From Escherichia coli (GTDB lineage Bacteria > Pseudomonadota > Gammaproteobacteria > Enterobacterales > Enterobacteriaceae), in the NCBI RefSeq assembly GCF_050920415.1, contig NZ_CP169309.1: DNA of 64,000 nucleotides. One strand, written 5' to 3'. Shown here one piece after another: positions 9,664-57,765 of the stretch. The position numbers and the translations under genes were made by a program. Numbering within the stretch: the first letter of the stretch is position 1; each line of letters begins with the position of its first letter. Under the pieces are notes generated by a model. It saw only the letters and a program-made list of their open reading frames with translations, searched no databases and was not told the origin of the DNA.

Positions 9664-12531
9664 ATGGGCATCAAACAACACAATGGGAATACCAAAGCCG
9701 ATCGTCTCGCTGAATTAAAAATCCGTTCGCCCTCCATTCAACTGATAAAATATGGCGCTATTGGTTTGAATGCAATTATCTTTTCCCCCCTGCTGATAGC
9801 TGCTGATTTAGGAAGTCAAAATGGCACCAATATTACTATTAATGATGGTGACAGAATTACAGGAGATACCGCCGATCCATCAGGAAACCTCTATGGTGTA
9901 ATGACCCCAGCAGGAAACACGCCTGGCAATATCAACCTGGGTGATGATGTCACCGTCAATGTCAACGACGCCTCTGGATATGCAAAGGGAATCATTATTC
10001 AGGGCAAGAACAGCTCTCTGACAGCTAACCGACTTACAGTAGATGTTGTTGGTCAAACCTCTGCCATCGGCATTAATTTAATTGGTGACTATACACATGC
10101 TGACTTAGGCACAGGCAGCACCATTAAGAGTAACGATGACGGCATCATTATTGGGCATAGCTCAACACTAACAGCCTCTCAATTCACCATTGAAAACTCG
10201 AACGGTATAGGCCTAACCATCAATGACTATGGCACCAGTGTCGATCTTGGAAGCGGTAGTAAAATCAAGACCGATGGAAGTACAGGTGTTTATATCGGTG
10301 GTCTCAACGGCAATAACGCCAACGGTGCTGCGCGTTTTACGGCGACAGACCTGACAATCGATGTTCAGGGCTACAGCGCCATGGGAATAAACGTACAGAA
10401 AAACTCTGTTGTCGATCTCGGAACAAACAGTACCATTAAAACCAATGGCGATAATGCACACGGCCTCTGGAGCTTTGGCCAGGTGAGCGCGAATGCACTC
10501 ACTGTTGATGTAACTGGAGCCGCTGCCAATGGCGTCGAAGTTCGTGGTGGTACAACCACTATCGGTGCTGATAGCCATATTTCTTCCGCGCAGGGCGGTG
10601 GCCTCGTAACCAGTGGTTCAGACGCGACAATCAATTTTTCTGGCACGGCAGCGCAACGAAACAGCATCTTTTCCAGCGGTTCTTATGGTGCCTCAGCCCA
10701 GACGGCAACGGCTGTTATCAACATGCAAAATACCGATATTACGGTTGATCGTAATGGCAGTCTGGCGCTGGGTTTGTGGGCGCTCAGCGGCGGTAGAATA
10801 ACCGGAGACAGTTTGGCTATCACCGGCGCGGCAGGAGCCAGGGGGATTTATGCCATGACCAACAGCCAGATCGATCTCACGAGCGATCTGGTCATTGATA
10901 TGAGTACACCCGACCAGATGGCCATCGCAACGCAACATGACGATGGTTATGCCGCCAGCCGCATCAACGCCTCGGGTCGTATGCTTATCAACGGTAGCGT
11001 TCTTTCTAAAGGTGGGCTAATCAATCTGGATATGCACCCTGGGTCGGTTTGGACAGGTTCTTCCCTCAGCGATAATGTCAATGGCGGAAAACTGGACGTT
11101 GCAATGAATAACAGCGTCTGGAACGTAACAAGTAATTCTAATCTCGACACGCTGGCGCTGAGCCATTCAACTGTCGATTTTGCCAGCCACGCGTCAACTG
11201 CCGGCACATTTACCACATTAAACGTAGAGAACCTTAGCGGTAACAGTACCTTTATTATGCGTGCTGATGTTGTTGGCGAGGGTAATGGCGTTAATAATAA
11301 AGGAGATTTATTGAATATCTGCGGGAGTAGTGCTGGTAATCACGTATTGGCTATCCGTAACCAGGGCAGCGAGGCCACAACGGGAAATGAAGTTCTGACA
11401 GTGGTAAAAACCACTGACGGCGCGGCCTCGTTCAGCGCGTCTTCTCAGGTTGAGTTGGGGGGATATCTGTATGATGTGCGTAAAAATGGCACTAACTGGG
11501 AGCTTTATGCTTCCGGGACAATTCCGGAGCCGACTCCTAATCCAGAGCCCACACCAGCTCCCGCTCAGCCCCCCATAGTCAACCCCGATCCTACGCCTGC
11601 CCCCGCTCCCACGCCTAAACCCACCACGACCGCAGATGCTGGCGGCAATTATCTCAATGTCGGTTACTTATTGAACTATGTTGAAAACCGTACGCTGATG
11701 CAACGGATGGGTGACCTGCGAAATCAGGGTAAAGACGGTAATATCTGGTTGCGCAGTTATGGGGGAAGCCTGGACTCCTTTGCCAGTGGCAAACTGAGCG
11801 GCTTTGACATGGGTTACAGCGGTATCCAGTTTGGTGGGGATAAACGTCTCTCTGATGAAATGCCGTTGTATGTCGGTCTGTATATTGGCTCAACACATGC
11901 ATCGCCGGACTATAGCGGAGGCGACGGTACCGCACGTTCAGACTACATGGGAATGTACGCCAGTTACATGGCACACAACGGTTTTTACAGCGATCTCGTT
12001 GTAAAAGCATCGCACCAGAAAAATAGTTTCCACGTACTGGACAGTCAGAACAACGGCGTTAACGCCAACGGCACTGCGAATGGATTGAGCATCTCCCTGG
12101 AAGCCGGGCAGAGGTTCAACCTGACCCCTACTGGTTATGGGTTCTATATAGAGCCGCAAACCCAGCTCACATACAGCCACCAGAATGGGATGGCTATGAA
12201 GGCGAGTAATGGTCTCAATATACATCTGAATCACTACGAATCGCTGCTGGGGCGTGCCAGCATGATACTGGGATATGACATCACCGCAGGCAACAGCCAG
12301 CTGAATGTCTATGTGAAGACTGGCGCTATCCGCGAGTTTTCAGGGGATACCGAATATCTGTTGAACAACTCCCGGGAGAAGTACAGTTTCAAAGGTAATG
12401 GCTGGAATAACGGCGTGGGAGTCAGTGCACAGTATAACAAACAGCACACATTCTATCTCGAAGCGGATTACACGCAGGGTAACCTCTTTGATCAGAAGCA
12501 AGTCAACGGAGGATATCGCTTCAGCTTTTAA
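9664..12531 (+). CDS. ycgV: AIDA/pertactin-type autotransporter (putative adhesin YcgV)
   Basis: 955-aa ORF: extended signal region, Gly/Thr/Asn-rich beta-helix-like repeats, Pro-rich linker (PEPTPNPEPTPAPAQPP...), C-terminal beta-barrel ending ...YRFSF. Confidence 0.85.
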   Translation: MGIKQHNGNTKADRLAELKIRSPSIQLIKYGAIGLNAIIFSPLLIAADLGSQNGTNITINDGDRITGDTADPSGNLYGVMTPAGNTPGNINLGDDVTVNVNDASGYAKGIIIQGKNSSLTANRLTVDVVGQTSAIGINLIGDYTHADLGTGSTIKSNDDGIIIGHSSTLTASQFTIENSNGIGLTINDYGTSVDLGSGSKIKTDGSTGVYIGGLNGNNANGAARFTATDLTIDVQGYSAMGINVQKNSVVDLGTNSTIKTNGDNAHGLWSFGQVSANALTVDVTGAAANGVEVRGGTTTIGADSHISSAQGGGLVTSGSDATINFSGTAAQRNSIFSSGSYGASAQTATAVINMQNTDITVDRNGSLALGLWALSGGRITGDSLAITGAAGARGIYAMTNSQIDLTSDLVIDMSTPDQMAIATQHDDGYAASRINASGRMLINGSVLSKGGLINLDMHPGSVWTGSSLSDNVNGGKLDVAMNNSVWNVTSNSNLDTLALSHSTVDFASHASTAGTFTTLNVENLSGNSTFIMRADVVGEGNGVNNKGDLLNICGSSAGNHVLAIRNQGSEATTGNEVLTVVKTTDGAASFSASSQVELGGYLYDVRKNGTNWELYASGTIPEPTPNPEPTPAPAQPPIVNPDPTPAPAPTPKPTTTADAGGNYLNVGYLLNYVENRTLMQRMGDLRNQGKDGNIWLRSYGGSLDSFASGKLSGFDMGYSGIQFGGDKRLSDEMPLYVGLYIGSTHASPDYSGGDGTARSDYMGMYASYMAHNGFYSDLVVKASHQKNSFHVLDSQNNGVNANGTANGLSISLEAGQRFNLTPTGYGFYIEPQTQLTYSHQNGMAMKASNGLNIHLNHYESLLGRASMILGYDITAGNSQLNVYVKTGAIREFSGDTEYLLNNSREKYSFKGNGWNNGVGVSAQYNKQHTFYLEADYTQGNLFDQKQVNGGYRFSF

Positions 12532-20267: not shown

Positions 20268-21290
20268 ATGTCACTAACCAGACGGAGGTTTACACAGATT
20301 CTTGCGTCGACATTGTTCCTGCATCATCTGCCGTCCTTTGCACAATCAGTCAAATTCTGGGCCTCACTGACGCTTCCCGAAGCCCAAAACATTACACGCA
20401 TCGTCAGCGCAGGCGCGCCCGCCGATTTACTATTGCTGGCTGTCGCGCCAGAAAAAATGGTCGGTTTTTCCTCTTTTGATTTTGCCCGTCAGGCATTAAT
20501 TCCATTGCCAGAGCACATTCGCCAGTTCCCCAGGCTGGGACGACTCGCCGGGCGCGCCAGCACACTCTCGCTGGAAGGGCTTATGGCATTACATCCCGAT
20601 TTGGTCGTTGATTGCGGCAATACGGATGAAACCTGGATCTCCCAGGCACGGCAGGTTAGCGAACAGACACAAATACCCTGGTTATTGCTTAACGGGAAAC
20701 TGGAACAATCAGCAGAACAGTTAACAACGCTTGGCAAAACGTTAGGCGAAGAGCACCGCGCCGCAGAACAAGCCAATCTCGCCAGCCGCTTCGTTGGTGA
20801 AGCTAAGGCATTCGCCACCTCACCCGCCGCTAACCTCAGCTTTTATGCTGCGCGCGGTCCTCGAGGGCTGGAAACGGGCTTACAGGGTTCGTTGCATACC
20901 GAGGCGGCGGAATTATTAGGTTTGCACAACGTCGCGCAAATAGCCGATCGCCACGGTCTGACACAGGTTTCCATGGAAAATCTCCTGCGCTGGCAGCCGG
21001 ATATTATTCTGGTTCAGGAGGCCGTTACTGCAGATTTTATTCGTCGTGATCCTCTCTGGCAGGGCGTGAAAGCGGTTGCGGAACAACGCATCTTATTTTT
21101 AAGTGGCCTGCCCTTTGGCTGGCTGGGTGCCCCGCCGGGAATCAACCGTCTTCTGGGATTACGCAGACTTCACGCCTGGCTGGATCCCGCCATCAATCGC
21201 CAGTTTAAAAGTGACATGCAGCATTACGCCCAACTGTTCTGGCATTGCCCATTAAGTGACGCTGACTATCAAAAATTGGTGGCGAGCTAA
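20268..21290 (+). CDS. Periplasmic substrate-binding protein of a metal-chelate ABC importer (FecB/BtuF/TroA-like fold)
   Basis: 340-aa ORF; N-terminus MSLTRRRFTQILASTLFLHHLPSFAQ resembles a signal peptide with a twin-arginine-like motif; first gene of a tightly packed six-gene operon. Confidence 0.7.
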   Translation: MSLTRRRFTQILASTLFLHHLPSFAQSVKFWASLTLPEAQNITRIVSAGAPADLLLLAVAPEKMVGFSSFDFARQALIPLPEHIRQFPRLGRLAGRASTLSLEGLMALHPDLVVDCGNTDETWISQARQVSEQTQIPWLLLNGKLEQSAEQLTTLGKTLGEEHRAAEQANLASRFVGEAKAFATSPAANLSFYAARGPRGLETGLQGSLHTEAAELLGLHNVAQIADRHGLTQVSMENLLRWQPDIILVQEAVTADFIRRDPLWQGVKAVAEQRILFLSGLPFGWLGAPPGINRLLGLRRLHAWLDPAINRQFKSDMQHYAQLFWHCPLSDADYQKLVAS

Positions 21291-22270
21291 TGAGAACCGT
21301 AAACGGATGTATTTTGCTGCTGGCAGCTATCAGTATCACTTTTGCCGCCGTAAGTGGGGCTTATCATCTCGATATACAGCAACTGCTGGCGCTCATTCTG
21401 CGTCAAGAAAATGTTCCTGTGCAGGAACAAATTGTCTTCTGGCAAATCCGCGTGCCGCGTATTCTTGCTGCGCTGTTTCTGGGCGCGGCGCTGGCAGGGG
21501 CCGGAACCACCTATCAGGGAATGTTCCGTAATCCCTTAGTGTCACCGGATATTTTAGGCGTCTCCGCCGGTGCCGGACTTGGTGCCTGCGCGGCAATCCT
21601 GTGGGGATTATCCATTGTTTACATCCAGCTGTACGCATTTTGCGGCGGGCTGATGGTGGTCGCGGGCGTCTGGTTGATTACGCGTCGGGTGACCCGCCAC
21701 GATCCGATCTTAACCCTGGTGCTGGTAGGCATTGCGTTAGGAACGTTGTGCGGAGCGGGGATATCGCTAATAAAAACGCTGGCCGATCCTTACACCCAGT
21801 TACCGTCAATTACCTTCTGGTTGCTGGGGGGGCTGTCCACCGTGACCTTACGCGATCTCTGCTATGCTGCACCGATCATTCTCATAGGCTCCTTGCCCCT
21901 GTTTTTTCTCCGCTGGCGCATGAATTTACTCACGCTTTCCGACGACGAAGCCCATTCGCTGGGACTGAACGTGACACGTCTGCGCTTTGGATTGATTGTC
22001 TGCGCCACACTCATCACCGCCAGCACGGTAGCAATAGCGGGCATAATTGGTTGGGTCGGCCTGGTCGTTCCGCACATTGCCCGCTTGTTGACCGGTCATA
22101 ACCATCAGCAGCTATTGCCCATGGCAATGTGTACTGGCGCGATTCTGCTCCTGCTTACCGATACGCTGGCACGCAGCATTGGAACAACAGAAATCCCACT
22201 TGGCATTCTGACCGCTTTTGTTGGTGCACCGTTTTTCCTGTTTTTGTTGTTACGCGGAGGTCGCCAGTGA
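21290..22270 (+). CDS. FecCD-family ABC permease
   Basis: 326-aa polytopic membrane ORF; start overlaps upstream stop (TAATG). Confidence 0.75.
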   Translation: MRTVNGCILLLAAISITFAAVSGAYHLDIQQLLALILRQENVPVQEQIVFWQIRVPRILAALFLGAALAGAGTTYQGMFRNPLVSPDILGVSAGAGLGACAAILWGLSIVYIQLYAFCGGLMVVAGVWLITRRVTRHDPILTLVLVGIALGTLCGAGISLIKTLADPYTQLPSITFWLLGGLSTVTLRDLCYAAPIILIGSLPLFFLRWRMNLLTLSDDEAHSLGLNVTRLRFGLIVCATLITASTVAIAGIIGWVGLVVPHIARLLTGHNHQQLLPMAMCTGAILLLLTDTLARSIGTTEIPLGILTAFVGAPFFLFLLLRGGRQ

Positions 22271-23025
22271 CTTTGCTTGCCGTCCGTCATGCGTCTCTGG
22301 GTTACTCCCGCCATCCGATGCTACGCGACGTGTCCTTCACCCTGTCGCAAGGAACAATTTGTTGTCTGTTAGGAGCCAATGGTTGCGGCAAAACCACACT
22401 CATGCGCTCCATTCTTGGCGTTATACCGTTATTAAAAGGCGAGATCTTACTGGATAGCCTCCCTGTGCAGACACTCAGCCATCGCCAGCGCGCGCAGGCT
22501 ATTGCCTGGGTGCCGCAGGCGCACGACGGCATTTTTGCTTTTAGTGTGCTGGATATGGTGTTGATGGGCCTGGCCCCCACCATAGGCGCTTTTTCCGTTC
22601 CCGGTAAGCAAGAACGCCTGAAAGCAACGGAGCAACTGGAAAAGCTGGGCATTTTGCATCTGGCGACACGACGCTGGAATACACTTAGCGGCGGTGAACG
22701 TCAGCTGGCTTTAATCGCCCGTGCACTCGTCCAGCAACCGCGCTTGTTATTACTGGATGAGCCTGCCTCCAGCCTCGATTTCGGTCATCAGATCCAACTA
22801 CTGGACACGCTGGCGCAGCTCAAAAATAACGGCATGACAATGCTAATGTCGACTCATCATCCGCTCCATGCCAACGCCATTGCCGACAGCATTATCCAGG
22901 TAGAGCCAGATGGACGAGTAACACAAGGCTTACCGACCGAACAGTTAACAACGAACAAACTGGCTGCCCTGTATCGGGTTTCTGCCGACCAGATTCATCA
23001 TCACCTCTCTGCAATTAGCCACTAA
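22267..23025 (+). CDS. ABC transporter ATP-binding protein
   Basis: Walker A GANGCGKTT, signature LSGGERQ, Walker B LLLLDEPASSLD; start placed at the GTG at 22267 overlapping the permease stop (GTGA), giving about 252 aa; the track ORF from 22129 would overlap the permease by about 140 nt. Confidence 0.75.
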   Translation: MTLLAVRHASLGYSRHPMLRDVSFTLSQGTICCLLGANGCGKTTLMRSILGVIPLLKGEILLDSLPVQTLSHRQRAQAIAWVPQAHDGIFAFSVLDMVLMGLAPTIGAFSVPGKQERLKATEQLEKLGILHLATRRWNTLSGGERQLALIARALVQQPRLLLLDEPASSLDFGHQIQLLDTLAQLKNNGMTMLMSTHHPLHANAIADSIIQVEPDGRVTQGLPTEQLTTNKLAALYRVSADQIHHHLSAISH

Positions 23026-23034
23026 GGAACAATC

Positions 23035-49746: not shown

Positions 49747-52700
49747 TCAGAACGACCAGTTCACACCAGCCACCGCGTTCCACGGGGATTCCACACTGGC
49801 ACCATGGCTATACCCCACCCCGAGATGCCCGCTTAACGAACTGCTGAATGAGGCTTTAATACCTGCCTGGTATATTCCACGTCTGCCCGACAAATCATTG
49901 ACAAAATTACCGTCATTATTCACTTTCACCCGGTTATCATCGACAAATTCTTTGCGCACAGCCGCCTTCAGCCACGGCTCTACTTCCATGCCGTTCCCCA
50001 GACGCATGTTGTAACTCAGCGTTGCGCCCAGTTCACGATATATACTGCGGGTATCGACTGATTTCGATTCCATACCATTGGATAAATGATATTCGGGGTT
50101 GTCAGCGGTTAACCCCGTTAACGATGCATACGGCGTCAGGTTCCAGTTACCATCGGTAAATCGCATCCCGGTTTCAATGTGACCGCCCAGCCCGTTGCTG
50201 CGATAACTGCCGTTGGCGGCTCCACCGCTGCTCATTTTACCGGCTACGTTACTTTCAAAGCGGTTCAGCTTCACGATACCGTCCAGATAGAAACCACTTT
50301 CATGTTCCCAGCTGACATAGCCCCCCAGAGAATAACTGCCCACACTGCCATGTCCTCCACGATCAAAACCGATATGTGAATGGGAATAACCCATAAAAGC
50401 GCCCAGCGTCGCAATCCCCTCAGGAATATCATTACGGCTATCGATCCCCACCGTCATTCCGGTCAGCGTCTGCTCAAACCCGGCACCCGCATCGGTGGTG
50501 ACATTATTACGGGTGTTATACGTCGTCCCCCAGACATTATTGTTGTGTGGACTCGCTTTCATTATGTTCAACCGCTCGCGAATACTGTTTAGCTCAGCAT
50601 CAAAGACCAACGGTAATGTTGCTGCCATATTGAGTACGGCTGCCGTAGAAGGCGTGATGCGTTTCTCCGGGACGGGTGTCGGCGTTGGATCGGGAGTCGG
50701 GTCTGGTTTCGGATCCGGTTTTGGGTCTGGTTTTGGATCCGGTTTCGGATTTGGGTTGGGGTCCGGGTTGGGTTTGACATCATTGGTCAGGTTCCAGTTG
50801 CTGTTGCCGTCGCTTTTCAGGACATACTCATAGGTCCCAAGATCAACGAAACCGCCGGTATTACCCAGCGTAAACGAAGCATCCCCTCCCCCTGTTTTCA
50901 CCAGCGTCATCGCGTCGTCAGACTGAGGGCTGACGCCGGTATCCTGAACAAAGATTTTAAAATTGCCAGTGGCGTTGTTGTTGACGACCAGTTGATCGCC
51001 CCGGGAGCCTGCAACGTTGGTATGCAGGTAGAAATTACCGCTGCCGGAAAGTTCACTGGTGGTCAGCGTATTGTAGATACCGTTAGTTGTGGCAGGCGCT
51101 GCTGTTTGTGCTGATAAATAAACATCACCGTCGTTGAGGAGCAAACTGTTTACTCTATATTCGCAGTTGCTGGTGCCTGCACAGGAATTATTGCTGTTAA
51201 GCCAGACACTGCCCCGGCTGGCAGCCGTCAGGTCGGCAAGCGTCGTATCGACGCCATTTCCGATAGTTAATGTCGCGCTATCGGTAATCCGGACCACCCC
51301 TTCAAGTTTAACTGGCGTAACATTATCCCGTGGCGTCATTAACGACAGGCTTCCTGTCGCGCCACTGACCGATGCATCCGCCAGCGTACCTGCGTAGACG
51401 ATTGCCGTCCCGCCAGCGACCTGTAGATCTTCTGCCCGGGCCAGAGCCTGAAACTCATCTTTTGACCGACCAAGGGTATATTGCCCACCGGAATTAACCT
51501 TTGTGGCGAAGTCCTGACCCAGGTTTTGCATTGCCCCACCGTTGCCAACCGTGGAATCGCGAGCTTCGGTACCTGCTAATACCAATAAATTACCGCCATT
51601 TTCCAGCAGCACATTGGTCGCTAAATTTCCGGCAATGGAAAAGGTGCCGTACTGGTGAGTACCGCTGATTTCAATACCGTTAGCCGTGCTCGTCTGGAGA
51701 GCGGCACCGCTGTTCTGGATGATATCTGTCGCTTTGCCATTATCGTTGACTGTCAGCGTACCGCCTTCATTAATCGTTGTTTTTACTGCCTCACCGTTAG
51801 CCGAAACTGTTTGTATTCCGCCGTCGTTAATCGTTGTCTCAGTCGCCACACCCTCGACGATTTGTTCACCGCCGGTAAGCATCGTGCCAGTCGCAGTGGC
51901 TTTTGTTTTGACGATCTCCCGTCCGCCCGCATTGACCTGTGTTTTGGCGGAAGTGGTGTCTGACTCCACGGTTAACACGCCGCCATTTGCCAGCAGGATA
52001 TTGTTCGCCGCATCCTGCTCGATGCTGAACGCGACGCCATCAGCGCGTGTCCCTGTGACCCGCGTCGCCCTGGTGGTTGCCACCAACGCGCCCTGGCTAC
52101 TCTGCTGTATCCCCGTAGCGCTGCCTTTCTCCCGCACATCGAGTGTGCCGCCGTCATTAAGTACCGAGTTTTCAGCCAGACCGCCCTCATTAACTACCTG
52201 TGAACCGCCATTAATAATGGAACCTTCCGTTGTCCCGTTTGCCATAATTTGTTGTAGGCCAGAGACGATATCGGTATTGATCGCCTTACCATAATTCTGA
52301 ACGGTTTGCGTGCCGCCTTTGATGTGCGTTTTATCTGTTGACCCACCATCAACAATTTGTTCACCACTTTCGATATTTGCCTCAGTGGCTAAACCATATA
52401 CCGTTTGCTTGCCACCTTTGATATTTGCTTTATCAGAAGTGGCACTGGCATATATTGTTTGGGTGCCCGCACTATTGAGTACAGTGCCAACATCTTTTCC
52501 ATAAACATCCATTTTGCCGTTGGCATTAATAATCGTATCAACTGCCCGGGAACCAGTAACGACTGTTAATGAGCCAGCGTTTTCCAGCACTACATTTTTA
52601 GCTTCTGAATTCCTGATGTAGAAAGCATCACCATAACTGTTGGTTCCTTCGATAAGTGTTCCGGAAGTCGTGGAAGCAATTAATGCGCCGCCGGATTGTT

Positions 52701-54429
52701 GCTCAACATGCTTAGCCTCACCACCGTCCTGAACCTCCAGAACGCCACCATTATTAAGTCTGGTGGTATCTGTTTTAGCCTCCTTCTGGACAATCAGCTT
52801 ACCGCCAGCATCAACGGTAGTATTTTTCGCCGTGGTTTTAGCCACTACCGTCAGTTCGCCGGTATTTTCCAGCACAACATAATTAGCCTCCCCTCCGGTA
52901 ATAGTGAAGTGAGAGAGCTTGTTGTATCCTTCAATATCAGTCCCTGCGCCCGTGTTGGCAACTAAAGCACTGCCCGTCTCCTGGTTAACCCCATGTGCGA
53001 TACCACCGGTATAGACAATCAGCGAGCCTCCGGCGCTAATATTGCTGCCAGTTGCCGTACCATCTTTCTCAACAACCTGCCGGCTCCCGGAGGAGATATT
53101 TGTCGTGTCAGCTTTCCCGCCGCTCTTGATATTTTGTGTTCCGCTGTTGATATTGGTTCCCGTGGCAATACCATGATTATTAATATTCTGTGTGCCACCA
53201 TTAATTATGGTATTTGTCGCGTTTCCGGCAACATCCATAACCCCGCCATTATCTATTCGGGTCGCATCAGCTTTAGCATTCGTTAAAACTGACATTGTTC
53301 CTTTATCTTTAATAACCGTCTTGTTTGCCGAACCATATGCGTTTATGTCTAAATGGCCACCGTTTTCCAGCAACACATTGTCTGCCACGTGATTGTGGAT
53401 GGAGAATGCCCCTTCACTATTCGTACCGCTCACCGTCGACCTGTCAGTCATTGCTTTTAAAGCCGCGCCATCGTGCTGGGTAACATTCGTTGCCGTACCC
53501 TCTCTAACATCAAGCACGCCACCGGAATATATTTCAATAACATTCGAGGTGCTCCTGCTATCAACAATTTGCGTCCCACCAGAATAGATCGTGGTAGTGT
53601 GCGCCGTTGACGTGTTTTGCAGCGTCTGCATTCCTCCATTTTTAATGGTGGTTATTTGTGCAGTGCTTGAATCAACATCCTGTCGACCACCATCTATTGT
53701 GGTGTCCAGCGCATGGCTCTTAATTGTTCTTTGGTCACCTCCATTTTTAATGATAGTGTTTTCTACAATACTCGAATCTACATACTGTCGGCCCCCATCT
53801 ATTGTTGTGTTCGTTGCCAGACTTCCTTGTGTGATGTTCTGAGAACCAGATGTATTTATCGTCGTACCGTCAACATGCCCCTGAGCTGTTACTGTTTGTT
53901 TACCACCATCAATGACAGTCCCGTTTGCTCTCCCTCCTTCGACGTATGAATTACCATTCTTAATTATCGTGCCATTGCTGGTACCATCCTTATAAATGTA
54001 CTGATTGCCACTCTCGATTAACGTGCCATTGCTGGTACCACCGTTATAAACTTGCTGATTGCCACTCGCGATTATCGTACCGCTAGAATTCCCACCATTA
54101 TAAATTACCTGTGTACCCCCATGAAGGATTGTATTATTAGCTTGCCCCTGATAATTGTTATGGTTTGCTACATCTTGTTGTCCACCCATTTCAATAATAC
54201 TTCCATTAGACACCCCACCAAATACAGTCTGGTGGCCGTGATTAATGATATGAGTATCATTAGTTGTCCCCCGTTCATCTACTATTTGCTCGCCATCCAC
54301 AGTTTCACCATTTACGATACCAGTAACGATTGATGTGAAAGCAGCCTCTCCAGGCTGGGCATATATCAAGGCAGATATCAATAAGGAAAGTACTGAACGG
54401 CGAAAATAATAGCGACTGGTCCTGTTCAT
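49747..54429 (-). CDS. Large AIDA-type autotransporter adhesin, apparently intact (corresponds to the locus I recall as an autotransporter pseudogene in K-12)
   Basis: ORF 49747..54558; start placed at the ATG at 54429 (MNRTSRYYFRRSVLSLLISALIYA, RBS agga 9 nt upstream; alternative ATG at 54438), giving about 1560 aa; long Gly/Thr/Asn-rich repetitive passenger, Pro-rich linker (PNPDPNPNPKPDPKPDPKPDP...), C-terminal beta-barrel ending ...GVNWSF. Confidence 0.8.
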   Translation of the reverse strand: MNRTSRYYFRRSVLSLLISALIYAQPGEAAFTSIVTGIVNGETVDGEQIVDERGTTNDTHIINHGHQTVFGGVSNGSIIEMGGQQDVANHNNYQGQANNTILHGGTQVIYNGGNSSGTIIASGNQQVYNGGTSNGTLIESGNQYIYKDGTSNGTIIKNGNSYVEGGRANGTVIDGGKQTVTAQGHVDGTTINTSGSQNITQGSLATNTTIDGGRQYVDSSIVENTIIKNGGDQRTIKSHALDTTIDGGRQDVDSSTAQITTIKNGGMQTLQNTSTAHTTTIYSGGTQIVDSRSTSNVIEIYSGGVLDVREGTATNVTQHDGAALKAMTDRSTVSGTNSEGAFSIHNHVADNVLLENGGHLDINAYGSANKTVIKDKGTMSVLTNAKADATRIDNGGVMDVAGNATNTIINGGTQNINNHGIATGTNINSGTQNIKSGGKADTTNISSGSRQVVEKDGTATGSNISAGGSLIVYTGGIAHGVNQETGSALVANTGAGTDIEGYNKLSHFTITGGEANYVVLENTGELTVVAKTTAKNTTVDAGGKLIVQKEAKTDTTRLNNGGVLEVQDGGEAKHVEQQSGGALIASTTSGTLIEGTNSYGDAFYIRNSEAKNVVLENAGSLTVVTGSRAVDTIINANGKMDVYGKDVGTVLNSAGTQTIYASATSDKANIKGGKQTVYGLATEANIESGEQIVDGGSTDKTHIKGGTQTVQNYGKAINTDIVSGLQQIMANGTTEGSIINGGSQVVNEGGLAENSVLNDGGTLDVREKGSATGIQQSSQGALVATTRATRVTGTRADGVAFSIEQDAANNILLANGGVLTVESDTTSAKTQVNAGGREIVKTKATATGTMLTGGEQIVEGVATETTINDGGIQTVSANGEAVKTTINEGGTLTVNDNGKATDIIQNSGAALQTSTANGIEISGTHQYGTFSIAGNLATNVLLENGGNLLVLAGTEARDSTVGNGGAMQNLGQDFATKVNSGGQYTLGRSKDEFQALARAEDLQVAGGTAIVYAGTLADASVSGATGSLSLMTPRDNVTPVKLEGVVRITDSATLTIGNGVDTTLADLTAASRGSVWLNSNNSCAGTSNCEYRVNSLLLNDGDVYLSAQTAAPATTNGIYNTLTTSELSGSGNFYLHTNVAGSRGDQLVVNNNATGNFKIFVQDTGVSPQSDDAMTLVKTGGGDASFTLGNTGGFVDLGTYEYVLKSDGNSNWNLTNDVKPNPDPNPNPKPDPKPDPKPDPKPDPTPDPTPTPVPEKRITPSTAAVLNMAATLPLVFDAELNSIRERLNIMKASPHNNNVWGTTYNTRNNVTTDAGAGFEQTLTGMTVGIDSRNDIPEGIATLGAFMGYSHSHIGFDRGGHGSVGSYSLGGYVSWEHESGFYLDGIVKLNRFESNVAGKMSSGGAANGSYRSNGLGGHIETGMRFTDGNWNLTPYASLTGLTADNPEYHLSNGMESKSVDTRSIYRELGATLSYNMRLGNGMEVEPWLKAAVRKEFVDDNRVKVNNDGNFVNDLSGRRGIYQAGIKASFSSSLSGHLGVGYSHGASVESPWNAVAGVNWSF

Positions 54430-55032
54430 AAATTTCATCCTCTGAAAAGTGAATACTGAGTAGCGGGTAAGCGACCTTAGCTCTGCTGCAACATCGGCCC
54501 ACAGGCACCAGACCAGGGGATTCATCCTTAAGAGACAGCGCAAGTGTATTGTGTTCACCGCTCATCAAAGACATCATGATGAAATGATGATATTCCGCAT
54601 AAGAAAGAGGCATTTTTAGACGCATCGCGCTGAAGTGTGGTTGAATAAAAATCAATCTTTTCAGATAAGACTGTCGTACTCTTATTTTGCGGAAATAAGG
54701 CCGTCGGCAAAGTAAAATGACTCACATAATTGTTTCTGATGAATATCTTCTACTCACATGAATATTACACAATAATATTGATGCATCAGATTATCTTACC
54801 TTTACAACATCACGTTAACAGCCAATGACACTTCTTGAATAAAAATATTGTCAATCAAAGAGTTATTTTTTATTTAAGATTATTCTCATTCAAGTAAAAG
54901 ACATAATTCCTATCATCACAGCCACGCTCATTTTGAATTATCTGAATAATAGCGAGCGTTCTTTAGTTAAGCAGGTCTTAATTGAAGACGAAATTATTGT
55001 GTGTGCAACTTACTTAATACCGGACATCTAAG

Positions 55033-55377
55033 TTGAAGAAAAAAATACTCGCCTTCGGGCTTATCTCAGCATTGCTCTGCTCCGCGCCAGCGATGGCGGA
55101 TATGAATCGCACCACAAAAGGTGCACTACTTGGTGCAGGCGTTGGTTTACTTACTGGCAATGGCGTTAATGGCGTACTGAAAGGTGCAGCTGTTGGCGCT
55201 GGCGTTGGTGCAGTAACAGAAAAAGGCCGCGACGGCAAAAATGCGCGCAAAGGTGCAAAAGTGGGTGCCGCCGTTGGTGCTGTCACTGGCGTTCTGACCG
55301 GCAATGGCCTTGAAGGGGCGATTAAAGGTGCCGTAATTGGCGGTACGGGTGGTGCAATTCTGGGTAAAATGAAATAA
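55033..55377 (+). CDS. ymgG: Glycine-zipper small protein YmgG
   Basis: 114-aa ORF with signal peptide and repeated GxxxG/GAxVG motifs; apparent TTG start. Confidence 0.8.
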
Positions 55378-55386
55378 GGAATGATG

Positions 55387-55716
55387 ATGAAAAAATTTGC
55401 TTTACTGGCGGGTCTGTTTGTTTTCGCACCAATGACCTGGGCGCAGGACTACAATATTAAGAACGGTTTGCCGTCAGAAACCTATATTACTTGCGCAGAA
55501 GCCAACGAAATGGCAAAAACTGACAGCGCACAGGTTGCAGAAATTGTTGCGGTAATGGGTAATGCCAGCGTTGCCAGCCGTGATTTAAAAATTGAGCAAT
55601 CTCCGGAACTGAGCGCCAAAGTGGTAGAAAAACTGAACCAGGTTTGCGCTAAAGACCCGCAAATGCTGTTGATCACGGCAATTGATGACACCATGCGTGC
55701 TATCGGCAAAAAATAA
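55387..55716 (+). CDS. ymgD: Periplasmic protein YmgD
   Basis: ORF 55381..55716; start at MKKFALLAGLFVFAPMTWA (signal peptide), giving about 109 aa. Confidence 0.85.
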   Translation: MKKFALLAGLFVFAPMTWAQDYNIKNGLPSETYITCAEANEMAKTDSAQVAEIVAVMGNASVASRDLKIEQSPELSAKVVEKLNQVCAKDPQMLLITAIDDTMRAIGKK

Positions 55717-55891
55717 TATTTCGTCTGTTACCGCGTCGATTGATTCGACGCGGTGGTTGTATATAGTTCTACAATGAAACATCACACCCGCCAATACGCC
55801 CTCACAACAACAAGCAAAGCAATTTAATCGGCATTAAACCACAAGTACAACAATACTTATTACTATATAGCGGCTATAGCATAAAGAAAGA

Positions 55892-56110
55892 TTAGTGCTG
55901 ATCCCTGTGGCTAACGAGTTTTTCCCTTACTCGATTAACCAGATTGATCGCCAGCCAAACAAGGGCATTCAGCAAATTTATCGTCACAAGCACTTCTCCA
56001 AGCCCAGTACTGGGTTTTGCGATAAGGATGACCAGCAAGGTGATCAGCATAAATGCAATGGAAAAGATGATATAGAGAGTGAAATAATCCAGATTATTAC
56101 TATTGTTCAT
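55892..56110 (-). CDS. ymgF: Small inner-membrane protein YmgF
   Basis: ORF 55892..56146; start at MNNSNNLDYFTLYIIF..., giving 72 aa with two hydrophobic helices. Confidence 0.75.
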   Translation of the reverse strand: MNNSNNLDYFTLYIIFSIAFMLITLLVILIAKPSTGLGEVLVTINLLNALVWLAINLVNRVREKLVSHRDQH

Positions 56111-56241
56111 GCTACTAATGGCAATCCTGTCAAAACTTTCAAACAATTATAGCAAACAAAATAATGAACAATAGTAACAAGACGCAACGAGCTAATTAGC
56201 TGTCTATAATTACACCGCACCATGGTCTTAATGATCAATTT

Positions 56242-57765
56242 TTACTCAATCATAACCTTCACCTTCGGTTTAGAAAGGATAATTTTAACCAGGTCGATGT
56301 AGGTTACCGGTTTATAGAAATAATAACCCTGCTGAAATGTGATGTTGTTTTGATTCAGATAATCAAGCTGTTCTTTTGTTTCGACACCTTCAGCGACGAT
56401 ACTGATCGAAAGTTTACGCGCCAGATCCAGTACACAATCCAGAATCCTGGTTGATTCTGGGTCTGCATTGACACGACCAACAAAACTGTGATCAATTTTA
56501 ATATAATCAATATGCAGATCATGCAGATAAGAAAGCCCTGAATAGCCAGTACCAAAATCATCCAGTGCGATGACAAAACCATTTTCATGCAGAATGTTCA
56601 ACCGCTGAACCAGACTTTCATCAACATCTAATGATTCACGCTCGGTCACTTCCAGAACGAGGTTTAAATCGCGGCGGGTAAAACTGTCACGGAAAATTAA
56701 GCACTCGTCGACAAACGTCGGCGAAATAATATGCGAGGCACTAAAATTAATTCCGATATGAAAACCTTCCGGCAATTTACTCGCGATAGTGTTCATCTGT
56801 GTGACAACCTGATTCATCAGACTTTGTGTAAGCGGAACAATTAATCCAGATTTTTCAGCAAGTGGAATAAATGCCGCGGGTGAGATATATTTGCCGTGAG
56901 GTTGTTTCCAGCGGGCTAATACCTCAACTCCCCGCAATGACCCTTCCCGACCATTTACCACAGGTTGGTAAAAAGGGACAATCTCACCATTACTTATGGC
57001 CCGTCGCAGGACCTCTTCAGGCGTTGCGCTTTTATTAAAATACTTATCAAGCAGGTAGGCTGCGGCGCAGGCAATTAACAGAATGAATATCAAAACCCCT
57101 ACGCCATTATCGATAAGTCTGTAGAAGCTAAAGAATGGTGGTGGGTTAAAGATAATAGTGAAATGATATCTTGTGGAGTGAACCTTCTCAGTATAAGGAT
57201 AGTGTCCATTAAGCGTCATCACGTCACCGGTAGGTCCAATAATGTCATCCGCTACGCGTAATGCATACCTTACCCCTTTCAAGGGCACATTAAGCGCTCC
57301 ACGAATATGCTGATCACTTATCGTGACCAAAATACGCGTGTCTGCAAATTGGCTCTGATAGAGCAGGATAGGCAATCTATTGACGGTGTCGATTGCCGGA
57401 GCCAACAGTAAATTACTGTCAGGGAAAGCAGGAATACGAGACAGCAGGACTCGATTCCCCGGCAAGGATGTACACCAGACCATTCCGCGTTTGAGAATGA
57501 TGATTGTGCGCAAGTGAGGTTTCAGAGCTGCTTCAGTGCCAAGCTGATATTGCTCCTCGAGGTCGCATTCCTTCCCGGCAATGTTAACCGCCGCTTGAGT
57601 CGCCTGTGACGCTTCTTCAAGTATGTGATTGATATTGTTGACAGCATATCTCGCTCCCGCCGTATATGCTGCTTTTGCGGAATACCAAAGCTGGATATTC
57701 AAAATAGCGACACCGGTTATAAACAAGCATATCGCAACGAGGATGGGTATGAGTGTATTGCGCAT
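56242..57765 (-). CDS. pdeG: c-di-GMP phosphodiesterase PdeG (YcgG; CSS-motif sensor domain plus EAL domain)
   Basis: 507-aa ORF with N-terminal TM and periplasmic domain, C-terminal EAL domain (EVLARW..., DDFGTGYS). Confidence 0.88.
   Translation of the reverse strand: MRNTLIPILVAICLFITGVAILNIQLWYSAKAAYTAGARYAVNNINHILEEASQATQAAVNIAGKECDLEEQYQLGTEAALKPHLRTIIILKRGMVWCTSLPGNRVLLSRIPAFPDSNLLLAPAIDTVNRLPILLYQSQFADTRILVTISDQHIRGALNVPLKGVRYALRVADDIIGPTGDVMTLNGHYPYTEKVHSTRYHFTIIFNPPPFFSFYRLIDNGVGVLIFILLIACAAAYLLDKYFNKSATPEEVLRRAISNGEIVPFYQPVVNGREGSLRGVEVLARWKQPHGKYISPAAFIPLAEKSGLIVPLTQSLMNQVVTQMNTIASKLPEGFHIGINFSASHIISPTFVDECLIFRDSFTRRDLNLVLEVTERESLDVDESLVQRLNILHENGFVIALDDFGTGYSGLSYLHDLHIDYIKIDHSFVGRVNADPESTRILDCVLDLARKLSISIVAEGVETKEQLDYLNQNNITFQQGYYFYKPVTYIDLVKIILSKPKVKVMIE

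Follow-up and report, generated by a model that had tools for sequence, protein, structure and literature searches.

Very probably (we estimate a probability of roughly 0.85), a short tandem repeat in Escherichia coli encodes an unstructured proline-rich spacer in an autotransporter, which changes its length in frame and by whole units, would act as a stand-off, and is present here as a comparatively stable allele that does not work as a switch. The repeat lies in a stretch of 64,000 nucleotides from contig NZ_CP169309.1, to which we refer as the window. It repeats at the level of the peptide, evolves as units are gained or lost from time to time, and is no hypermutable switch.

Host gene and position of the spacer

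The autotransporter gene adjoins minE. Its parts, and the spacer itself, are located as follows:

49747-54429, minus strand: coding sequence of a YpjA/EhaD-like AIDA-type (type Va) autotransporter of 1560 aa, stop codon included (list of open reading frames, RefSeq, Pfam)
50785-51153, minus strand: pertactin-like C-terminal passenger (autochaperone) domain, whose final beta-helix rungs adjoin the spacer on its N-terminal side (Pfam PF03212; ORF residues 1136-1258, converted to coordinates of the coding sequence and the window)
50665-50775, minus strand: proline-rich (P-X)n spacer KPNPDPNPNPKPDPKPDPKPDPKPDPTPDPTPTPVPE, residues 1219-1255, 37 codons (translation, codon parse, AlphaFold2)
50548-50646, minus strand: alpha-helical segment directly C-terminal of the spacer (AlphaFold2 helix, model residues 180-212; the BrkA and Vag8 alignments start here)
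49816-50535, minus strand: C-terminal outer-membrane beta-barrel domain (Pfam PF03797; AlphaFold2 strands at high pLDDT)

The mechanical open reading frame of the autotransporter extends further, to position 54558. RefSeq has the gene as coding sequence WP_332832721.1 in record NZ_CP169399.1 (100% identical to the window), under the label 'AIDA repeat-containing protein'. Pfam matches comprise eight AIDA repeats (PF16168, E=4e-141), the Pertactin domain (PF03212, E=5.6e-45) and the Autotransporter domain (PF03797, E=1.6e-45; 156 bits against a cut-off of 26). The passenger aligns to residues 430-534 of pertactin (PDB 1DAB), whereas the barrel matches the beta-domain of BrkA (3QQ2) from query residue 198 and Vag8 (7AKV) from residue 172. 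The features of a classical (type Va) AIDA-I/pertactin-like protein are found, namely a C-terminal 12-stranded barrel, an alpha-helix before it and a beta-helical passenger of AIDA repeats with a pertactin-like end. By eye the N-terminus of the annotated protein (MNRTSRYYFRRSVLSLLISALIYAQPGEA) looks like a signal peptide. Genes of this kind are frequently not expressed under laboratory conditions.

The initial annotation had described near-tandem short repeats at 50676-50776 of the plus strand that encode the proline-rich linker of an autotransporter. Reading the sequence bears out this repeat text, and both Pfam and RefSeq agree on an autotransporter as host, with the segment placed between passenger and barrel. 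The minus-strand translation reads ...NDVKPNPDPNPNPKPDPKPDPKPDPKPDPTPDPTPTPVPEKRITPS... and includes the peptide quoted at the time (PDPKPDPKPDPKP). No fewer than 18 of the 31 prolines of the whole protein are in the spacer, which follows the last beta-helix rung of the pertactin-like domain and precedes the alpha-helix lodged in the beta-barrel; the position of the equivalent helix in the barrel pore is seen in solved relatives. The pertactin-like match stops at query residue 136, one residue short of the spacer. In the AlphaFold2 model (mean pLDDT 83) beta strands run up to residue 135, residues 142-173 are coil with pLDDT below 50, and residues 180-212 form the helix. The model predicts that the spacer is an unstructured coil; the spacer is probably extended.

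Matches to the C-terminal 480 aa in a database of 5.8 billion proteins were for the most part fragments or belonged to remoter relatives (YejO, Citrobacter, Salmonella), not to full-length YpjA orthologs. Many relatives have a proline-rich segment of 13-53 aa some 300 residues before the C-terminus; others lack one.

Comparison with other proline-rich spacers

The closest parallel is R2 of Bordetella pertactin, a proline-rich short repeat that directly follows the C-terminal beta-helix domain and thus takes the position of the spacer in the window. The repeat peptide differs, with no sequence homology within the repeat; that of R2 is PQP. The pertactin passenger is cleaved. R2 is not resolved in the crystal, and pertactin alleles vary in the number of repeats in R1 and R2 (PMC8931430). 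Like R2, the spacer in the window is located after a beta-helix domain and occurs in alleles of different unit number (31, 37, 39 and 41 aa); it is modelled as coil with pLDDT below 50.

This parallel also lends itself to another reading, according to which immune or phage pressure drives the variation. The spacer would then be an exposed epitope or receptor loop that varies, an idea put forward for R1 and R2. Both the shared position and the varying repeat number of pertactin would fit such pressure, and so would the point substitutions seen between spacer alleles (D to A, D to G, N to I). In the pertactin study, however, no antibodies bound R1 or R2 (PMC8931430), and we consider this reading unlikely. 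It is compatible with a spacer that sets distance.

In composition the spacer resembles two further proteins. TonB has a (Glu-Pro)n(Lys-Pro)n spacer of alternating X-Pro dipeptides with charged residues, which is a rigid extended connector linking two functional parts of an envelope protein. It is periplasmic rather than extracellular and unrelated in sequence, and it is not known as a length-polymorphic locus. The EP repeats of trypanosome procyclin (PARP) are likewise alternating dipeptides of proline and an acidic residue on a cell surface. The Pfam match to this family (PF05887, Trypan_PARP) is nonetheless compositional, being due to low complexity (30.9 bits against a Pfam cut-off of 100), and was rejected as a sign of homology.

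Length variation of PDPK-type spacers

The spacer of the window contains a run of the tetrapeptide PDPK. Alleles of this type have lengths of 31, 37, 39 and 41 aa, so the expectation of the initial annotation that the linker changes in length across strains is upheld, and an identical length in all relatives is not observed. Insertions and deletions comprise whole units of 6, 12 or 24 nt within the array and are always in frame. Two such changes relative to the window fall within the array, one adding 12 nt after 50746 and the other removing 6 nt at 50714-50719; the 31-aa allele equals the K-12 type minus exactly one 24-nt KPDPKPDP unit. All 26 sequenced alleles, of either spacer type, differ by multiples of 6 nt and remain in frame, and accordingly no on/off switching by frameshift was found among them.

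The number of lengths is small. Match spans in an even sample of 2,503 PDPK-type genomes are 321, 327 and 333 nt, plus one of 303 nt, which makes four lengths only. These spans are a proxy for linker length wherever the locus was not sequenced, as indels in intergenic sequence contribute as much as about 8 nt, and allele frequencies here and below come from samples of 38-60 matches plus the 26 sequenced loci rather than from all 5,426 complete E. coli genomes. The alleles of the window and of two other genomes (L018 and L019) are all 37 aa long despite 16-36 SNPs between their flanks of 1,520 nt; a 6-nt difference in the span of L019 falls entirely outside the linker. In another 15 genomes whose min-locus gene is of the window's type, the span is at most 6 nt off that of the window.

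The same type of spacer is found in YpjA/EhaD of E. coli K-12 and O157:H7, which shares the architecture of the window protein and is nearly identical to it in the C-terminal third. YpjA has been classed with the biofilm-forming AIDA-I/Ag43-like adhesins (PMC9289746). The YpjA/EhaD gene is located at the ssrA-linked ypjA locus, whereas the gene of the window adjoins minE. Linkers measure 39 aa in K-12 YpjA and 41 aa in ypjA of O145:H28, against 37 aa in the window; genomes of O157:H7 show the 333-nt span of O145:H28 ypjA, 12 nt over that of the window. Over 901 nt around the linker K-12 ypjA is 95.3% identical to the window. For ypjA of strain XH992 identity is as high as 99.4% over the same 901 nt (97.1% over 3.87 kb), and its linker, also of PDPK type, is one synonymous base off that of the window. 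Judged from these sequences, the whole linker allele appears to have moved between the ypjA and min loci by recombination between paralogs. Record NZ_CP169399.1 has two matching places for the 901-nt region, with the best place per record alone being listed.

An allelic Pro-Asn spacer at the same locus

At the min locus, most other strains whose gene is intact carry an allelic (PN)n spacer, which is present there in roughly 400 of the 5,426 complete genomes. The autotransporter concerned, at the minE-ymgJ locus (RefSeq label ypjA-like), has the same flanking peptides as that of the window (NWNLTN.. before the spacer and TPDPTPTPVPEKRITPS after it) and a barrel that is 94-95% identical. It differs by a shorter passenger (the whole protein measures 1,126-1,146 aa in the four genes of which the full length was seen) and by a linker of pure Pro-Asn with hypervariable length instead of PDPK.

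Here the DNA itself is repetitive: the spacer is encoded by pure tracts of the hexanucleotide AAYCCR, with exact period-6 tracts of up to 93 nt. Among the 13 (PN)n alleles that were sequenced, 12 lengths occur, from 29 aa to 87 aa, the latter in strain ETEC4068 with an (AATCCA)15 tract. Every length is a multiple of 6 nt and every one of these genes carries an intact annotation, and about 20 distinct match spans occur among 41 genomes. Pairs of genomes with 0-4 SNPs in the flanks differ by 4-34 aa in the spacer; the length shifts faster than the flanking sequence gains SNPs. Even so, when a (PN)n allele was used as the query, the genomes among the best matches listed were all 99.9-100% identical, at least 53 of them at 100%, without diversity in length. 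These genomes, at least 53 in number, share an identical 59-aa allele inside an identical stretch of 1,571 nt, which indicates that even pure tracts are stable within a clone.

Periodicity of the array at the DNA level

In the window the array is called by Tandem Repeats Finder in two rows:

50685-50773, no strand assigned: array of period 24, 3.8 copies, score 87
50697-50750, no strand assigned: nested array of period 12, 4.5 copies, 80% matches, score 66, consensus TCGGATCCGGTT

We ran the same program on 30 dinucleotide-preserving shuffles of the 64-kb window. Best scores per shuffle were 37-64, with one row alone reaching 60; the array thus beats random DNA clearly at period 24 (87) and marginally at period 12 (66 against 64). 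Different results are obtained when synonymous codons are permuted within the linker: matches at lag 12 are equalled or exceeded in 93% of the permutations (p=0.93) and those at lag 24 in 66% (p=0.66). Since permuted linkers so often match or beat the real one, the DNA is no more periodic than the peptide demands, and there is no excess of synonymous identity between the repeat units of the window allele. Exact periodicity extends over no more than 10, 20 and 35 nt (periods 6, 12 and 24), each below two units. The allele is codon-scrambled: its units use different synonymous codons, and for this reason a perfect tandem tract of two units is lacking.

These data bear on the possibility that the array is an active hypermutable simple-sequence contingency locus, with several linker lengths always present in the population. 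What speaks for it comes from the (PN)n alleles, in which several identical tandem DNA units occur, in tracts of up to 93 nt, and in which lengths differ between very close relatives (0-4 SNPs in the flanks). Neither property is seen in alleles of the window type: the window allele is without a perfect two-unit tract or excess synonymous identity, the length of 37 aa is kept in three genomes despite 16-36 SNPs in the flanks, and the even sample of PDPK-type genomes has four lengths only. Moreover, every unit is a multiple of 3 nt long, which excludes on/off switching of the gene by frameshift. A contingency locus is therefore very unlikely, and we return to the reading as a stable peptide-level spacer. 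The allele of the window is a comparatively stable member of the series and no on/off switch.

Finally, a chance or compositional artefact, or a part of the plus-strand open reading frame at 50495-50833 (112 aa, ...GSGFGSGFGSGFG...) that spans the array, can be dismissed with near certainty, as the array scores above all 30 shuffles (at period 12 marginally), the minus-strand frame runs unbroken into Pfam domains on both sides and is kept in every sequenced allele, and RefSeq has the autotransporter as one coding sequence; the plus-strand frame is a mirror image of the P-X repeat, without support of its own, and was rejected.

A regulatory cluster of GATC (Dam) sites was also considered, given three sites exactly 24 nt apart (50688, 50712, 50736). 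It was rejected: the sites are explained by GAT-CC (Asp-Pro) codon pairs, and GATC has the same density elsewhere in the window.

Proposed origin and role of the length differences

In the reading that we prefer, a spacer of P-X dipeptides with a run of PDPK tetrapeptides joins the beta-helical passenger to the alpha-helix of the barrel. Changes in unit number may arise by replication slippage, as suggested by the confinement of rapid change to pure tracts. With units as short as these, slippage is a likelier process than homologous recombination. The initial annotation had noted that such arrays can expand or contract by recombination: the change by whole units stands, but slippage is the better candidate for the process. 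In addition, the window's own array is comparatively stable and its DNA units are degenerate, which makes it a weak substrate for further change.

The spacer may act as a stand-off, and would then determine the distance by which the adhesive beta-helix stands out from the membrane. Assuming a fully extended polyproline-II conformation (3.1 Angstrom per residue), 37 aa would reach at most about 11 nm, and the (PN)n alleles would span about 9-27 nm under the same assumption. Surface polysaccharides can mask short adhesins such as autotransporters (PMC8286834); as a stand-off, the spacer could by its length affect exposure through the layer of O-antigen or capsule. A rather doubtful extension of this idea is that one E. 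coli locus holds two spacer designs, a codon-scrambled and length-stable PDPK design versus a fast-changing (PN)n design of pure tracts, and that the latter is a heritable, quickly adjustable dial of reach, provided that length sets reach.

Taken by itself the repeat of the window is of little import. It is an ordinary spacer in an annotated YpjA-like adhesin, and variable proline-rich repeats are familiar from pertactin. The literature that we searched on ypjA, ycgH, ycgV and ycgI (K-12 pseudogene name) yielded no description of the YpjA-like linker or its polymorphism, nor did we find the (PN)n length series described. The comparison of both spacer types is of more use, as codon scrambling and pure tracts here yield stable and unstable versions of the same kind of peptide. 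In addition, the (PN)n alleles offer a natural length series on the question whether spacer length governs the exposure of short adhesins through polysaccharide.

We also compared the repeat with the generic E. coli MLVA loci, of which CVN014, CVN015, CVN016 and CVN017 have 6-bp units. Identity with one of them was rejected since no primer maps: with up to 2 mismatches, 0 of the 20 primers of the GECM-10 scheme (CVN001-017, CCR001; taken from PMC8143711) match the window or any fetched locus. Because it lies outside the standard MLVA loci, the (PN)n tract could serve as an unexploited typing marker of high resolution.

The window contains a second proline-rich spacer, in a separate autotransporter, ycgV (annotated at 9664-12531):

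11524-11625, plus strand: proline-rich spacer of ycgV PEPTPNPEPTPAPAQPPIVNPDPTPAPAPTPKPT, non-repetitive (translation, annotation)

It had been described as similar to the first but less regular, and this description holds; Tandem Repeats Finder calls no array there.

Position of the spacer in the host protein

The Pro-rich repeat lies in an autotransporter gene that directly follows minCDE. The features concerned are:

49747-54558, minus strand: autotransporter open reading frame (ORF list)
49747-54429, minus strand: coding sequence, RefSeq 'AIDA repeat-containing protein', 1560 aa
50665-50775, minus strand: Pro-rich spacer KPNPDPNPNPKPDPKPDPKPDPKPDPTPDPTPTPVPE, 37 residues (1219-1255 of the annotated protein)
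50697-50750: period-12 array, 4.5 copies, 80% matches, score 66, consensus TCGGATCCGGTT (Tandem Repeats Finder)
50685-50773: period-24 array, 3.8 copies, score 87, overlapping the former (Tandem Repeats Finder)

In every defining feature tested, the host gene agrees with a classical autotransporter of the AIDA/pertactin type. Pfam finds eight AIDA repeats, a Pertactin domain ending just N-terminal of the spacer and an Autotransporter beta-domain beyond it. The sole Pfam match on the spacer itself, to trypanosome procyclin, is compositional (30.9 bits against a cut-off of 100) and was rejected. In a search against solved structures, the region just ahead of the spacer aligns to pertactin residues 430-534 (1DAB), and the region past it to the barrel domains of Vag8 (7AKV) and BrkA (3QQ2). 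The spacer, flanked by the peptides NWNLTNDV (before) and KRITPS (after), holds 18 of the 31 prolines of the whole protein.

An AlphaFold2 model of the C-terminal 480 residues (27-sequence alignment, mean pLDDT 83) places beta-helix strands up to residue 135, coil with pLDDT <50 at 142-173 and, ahead of the barrel, a helix at 180-212; the spacer corresponds to model residues 137-173. From this model and the domain placement, the spacer is predicted to be an unstructured connector between the last passenger rung and the pre-barrel helix, which passes through the pore of the barrel in relatives of known structure. Proline-rich region 2 (R2) of pertactin has the same position, and shares with the spacer a lack of structure and a repeat number that differs between alleles.

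No tandem repeat in the window scores higher than one in the N-terminal passenger of the same protein (53963-54078, period 54, 2.1 copies, 87% matches, score 183), which presumably reflects duplicated beta-helix rungs.

Nature of the repeat array

The initial annotation described near-tandem 12-nt repeats on the plus strand at 50676-50776. The sequence there agrees with this wording, and the peptide and coordinates are correct to about 10 bases (the true coding span is 50665-50775); the annotation was right, and the feature itself is ordinary. It also called the linker of ycgV (annotated at 9664-12531) less regular, which is borne out: its Pro-rich segment (11524-11625) is non-repetitive and contains no Tandem Repeats Finder array.

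Compared to random DNA the array stands out, though narrowly for the shorter, period-12 array: the best scores in 30 dinucleotide-preserving shuffles of the window were 37-64, with only one row at >=60, against the observed 66 and 87. Synonymous codons were also permuted among spacer positions that carry an identical residue; the observed number of nucleotide matches was equalled or exceeded in 93% of these permutations for lag 12 and in 66% for lag 24, so at these lags there is no DNA periodicity beyond what the peptide gives. The longest exact periodic stretches are 10 nt (period 6), 20 nt (period 12) and 35 nt (period 24), and at none of these periods are two full exact units reached. The periodicity of the DNA is therefore a by-product of repetition in the peptide, the units being written in differing synonymous codons.

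Three GATC (Dam) sites within the repeat (50688, 50712 and 50736) are spaced exactly 24 nt apart and stem from GAT-CC (Asp-Pro) codon pairs; they are probably incidental, as three per 100 nt are also found elsewhere in the window. An antisense ORF (50495-50833, plus strand, 112 aa, ...GSGVGSGFGSGFGSGFG...) mirrors the P-X repeat and has no support as a gene. The repeat is not among the standard generic E. coli MLVA loci, and no paper on this linker was found in the literature.

Length variation of the PDPK-type spacer

Comparison of strain genomes confirms the earlier proposal that linker length varies between strains. Allele frequencies are based on row samples and 26 sequenced loci.

Lengths of the PDPK-type spacer (spacers with a PDPK tetrapeptide run, as in the window)
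31 aa: KMi029
37 aa: window, XH992, GF47, RMDEC465, EC42405
39 aa: K-12 type
41 aa: O145:H28, UCPROB-001

Strain MFDS1022581 (chromosome NZ_CP169399.1) matches the 901 nt around the repeat at 100% identity. In the 901-nt alignment, indels within the array comprise a 12-nt insertion after 50746 and a 6-nt deletion at 50714-50719; the sole indels beyond the array are a pseudogene frameshift of 1 nt and a 12-nt deletion (51098-51109). The latter belongs to the ypjA allele of UCPROB-001, where it lies in-frame in the pertactin-like domain and exactly cancels a 12-nt longer linker. The overall match span appeared unchanged, and match spans alone can therefore mislead. The 31-aa allele equals the K-12 type minus exactly one 24-nt KPDPKPDP unit.

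In an evenly spaced sample from 2,503 genomes matching a 321-nt query, spans were 321 (or 320) nt in 19 rows, 327 nt in 30, 333 nt in eight and 303 nt in one, the span of unsequenced rows being a proxy for length with an error of up to about 8 nt (intergenic indels). The PDPK length is thus polymorphic, yet falls into few classes. Among window-type pairs the flanks (1,520 nt) differ by 16-36 SNPs and all spacers are 37 aa. Considering this constancy, the codon permutations and the lack of a two-unit tract, the window's allele fails as a hypermutable simple-sequence locus.

The allelic Pro-Asn spacer

In the usual min-locus gene of other strains a Pro-Asn repeat, (PN)n, replaces the PDPK run between unchanged flanking peptides. 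This series is a more interesting by-product than the window's own spacer. The 13 sequenced alleles have 12 distinct lengths (29, 33, 33, 37, 41, 45, 53, 59, 61, 65, 69, 75 and 87 aa), all multiples of 6 nt, and every gene is annotated intact; in another 41 genomes, about 20 different match spans occur. Their sequences include exact period-6 tracts, for example (AATCCA)15, of at most 93 nt, and related alleles differ by how many copies these pure tracts hold. Pairs with 0-4 SNPs in the 1,520-nt flanks are 4-34 aa apart (37 against 33 aa and 69 against 53 aa with 0 SNPs, 87 against 53 aa with three). Still, the tract is not wildly unstable: the 59-aa allele lies within an identical 1,571-nt stretch common to at least 53 genomes from several countries and hosts. 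The scrambled, stable allele of the window contrasts with these variable alleles with pure tracts.

Locus and paralogs

RefSeq labels the relatives 'ypjA/EhaD-like', yet they come from two loci. The true ypjA locus adjoins ssrA or islands inserted there. Directly beside minE, most genomes retain only a remnant of the barrel end of the gene, ending at window 50091, and an intact gene is found in about 420 of 5,426 complete genomes. In O157:H7 (H2495, L006 4698-6705) an IS1203 element interrupts the min-locus gene about 160 nt before the linker is reached, and the match to the window accordingly ends at 50501.

We compared the two gene forms using window 49747-54429 and the fetched loci L002-L005 and L014-L024. 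The long, ypjA-like form of the window (1560 aa) occurs in only 18 genomes, including the window, among the matches listed. It is 97% identical to ypjA of strain XH992 over 3.9 kb; across its 3' 1.26 kb, identity is 99% with the ypjA genes of other strains, against only 94-95% with the usual gene at the min locus. The usual form (1,126-1,146 aa, judged by four complete genes from other genomes with an intact locus) lacks two AIDA-repeat blocks (~565 and ~750 nt) relative to the long form. Because the 3' identity favours ypjA and the forms differ greatly, the sequences suggest that exchange took place between the ypjA and min-locus paralogs.

Upstream neighbours also differ between the forms: in place of ymgJ and ymgI there is a short hypothetical gene together with an ATPase fragment. 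Another autotransporter gene, ycgH, follows ymgD in strains D8, RIVM_C037134, GPEC856 and B19429; the window strain lacks it and has ymgF and pdeG directly after ymgD (window about 55000-57200; L001 10580-12901).

Possible mechanism and function

The data establish the position of the spacer, its predicted disorder and its in-frame, unit-wise change in length. Judging from established knowledge of short tandem repeats, replication slippage would be the source of the length changes. Since this process depends on how pure and how long a tract is, it would account for the stability of the window's allele. A role in on/off phase variation is excluded because every length change keeps the frame. 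Given the chemistry of X-Pro repeats and the discussion of pertactin in PMC8931430, the spacer may form an extended stand-off, which at 3.1 Angstrom per residue would reach no more than about 11 nm in the window's allele, or about 9-27 nm across the (PN)n alleles. Short adhesins, autotransporters among them, can be masked by the capsule and by other polymers of the cell surface (PMC8286834); we therefore hypothesize that spacer length could affect adhesin exposure.

Other loci in the window

A 469-aa 'hypothetical protein' (32090-33499, plus strand) is encoded between a C-terminally truncated cvrA pseudogene (29655-31325) and dadX. It contains leucine-rich repeats (Pfam LRR_4 and LRR_8, scores just under the cut-offs) and two arrays: 32399-32522 (period 12, 10.3 copies) and 33230-33345 (period 9/27), the latter encoding an acidic LEDLE-type tail. 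The gene looks like an insertion, because cvrA presumably abuts dadX in K-12. Between treA and ymgE lies a seven-gene cluster (20268-26694, plus strand), which we take not to be part of the K-12 gene order there; its genes encode an iron ABC transporter substrate-binding protein, permease and ATPase, a SAM-dependent methyltransferase, ModD and a TonB-dependent receptor.
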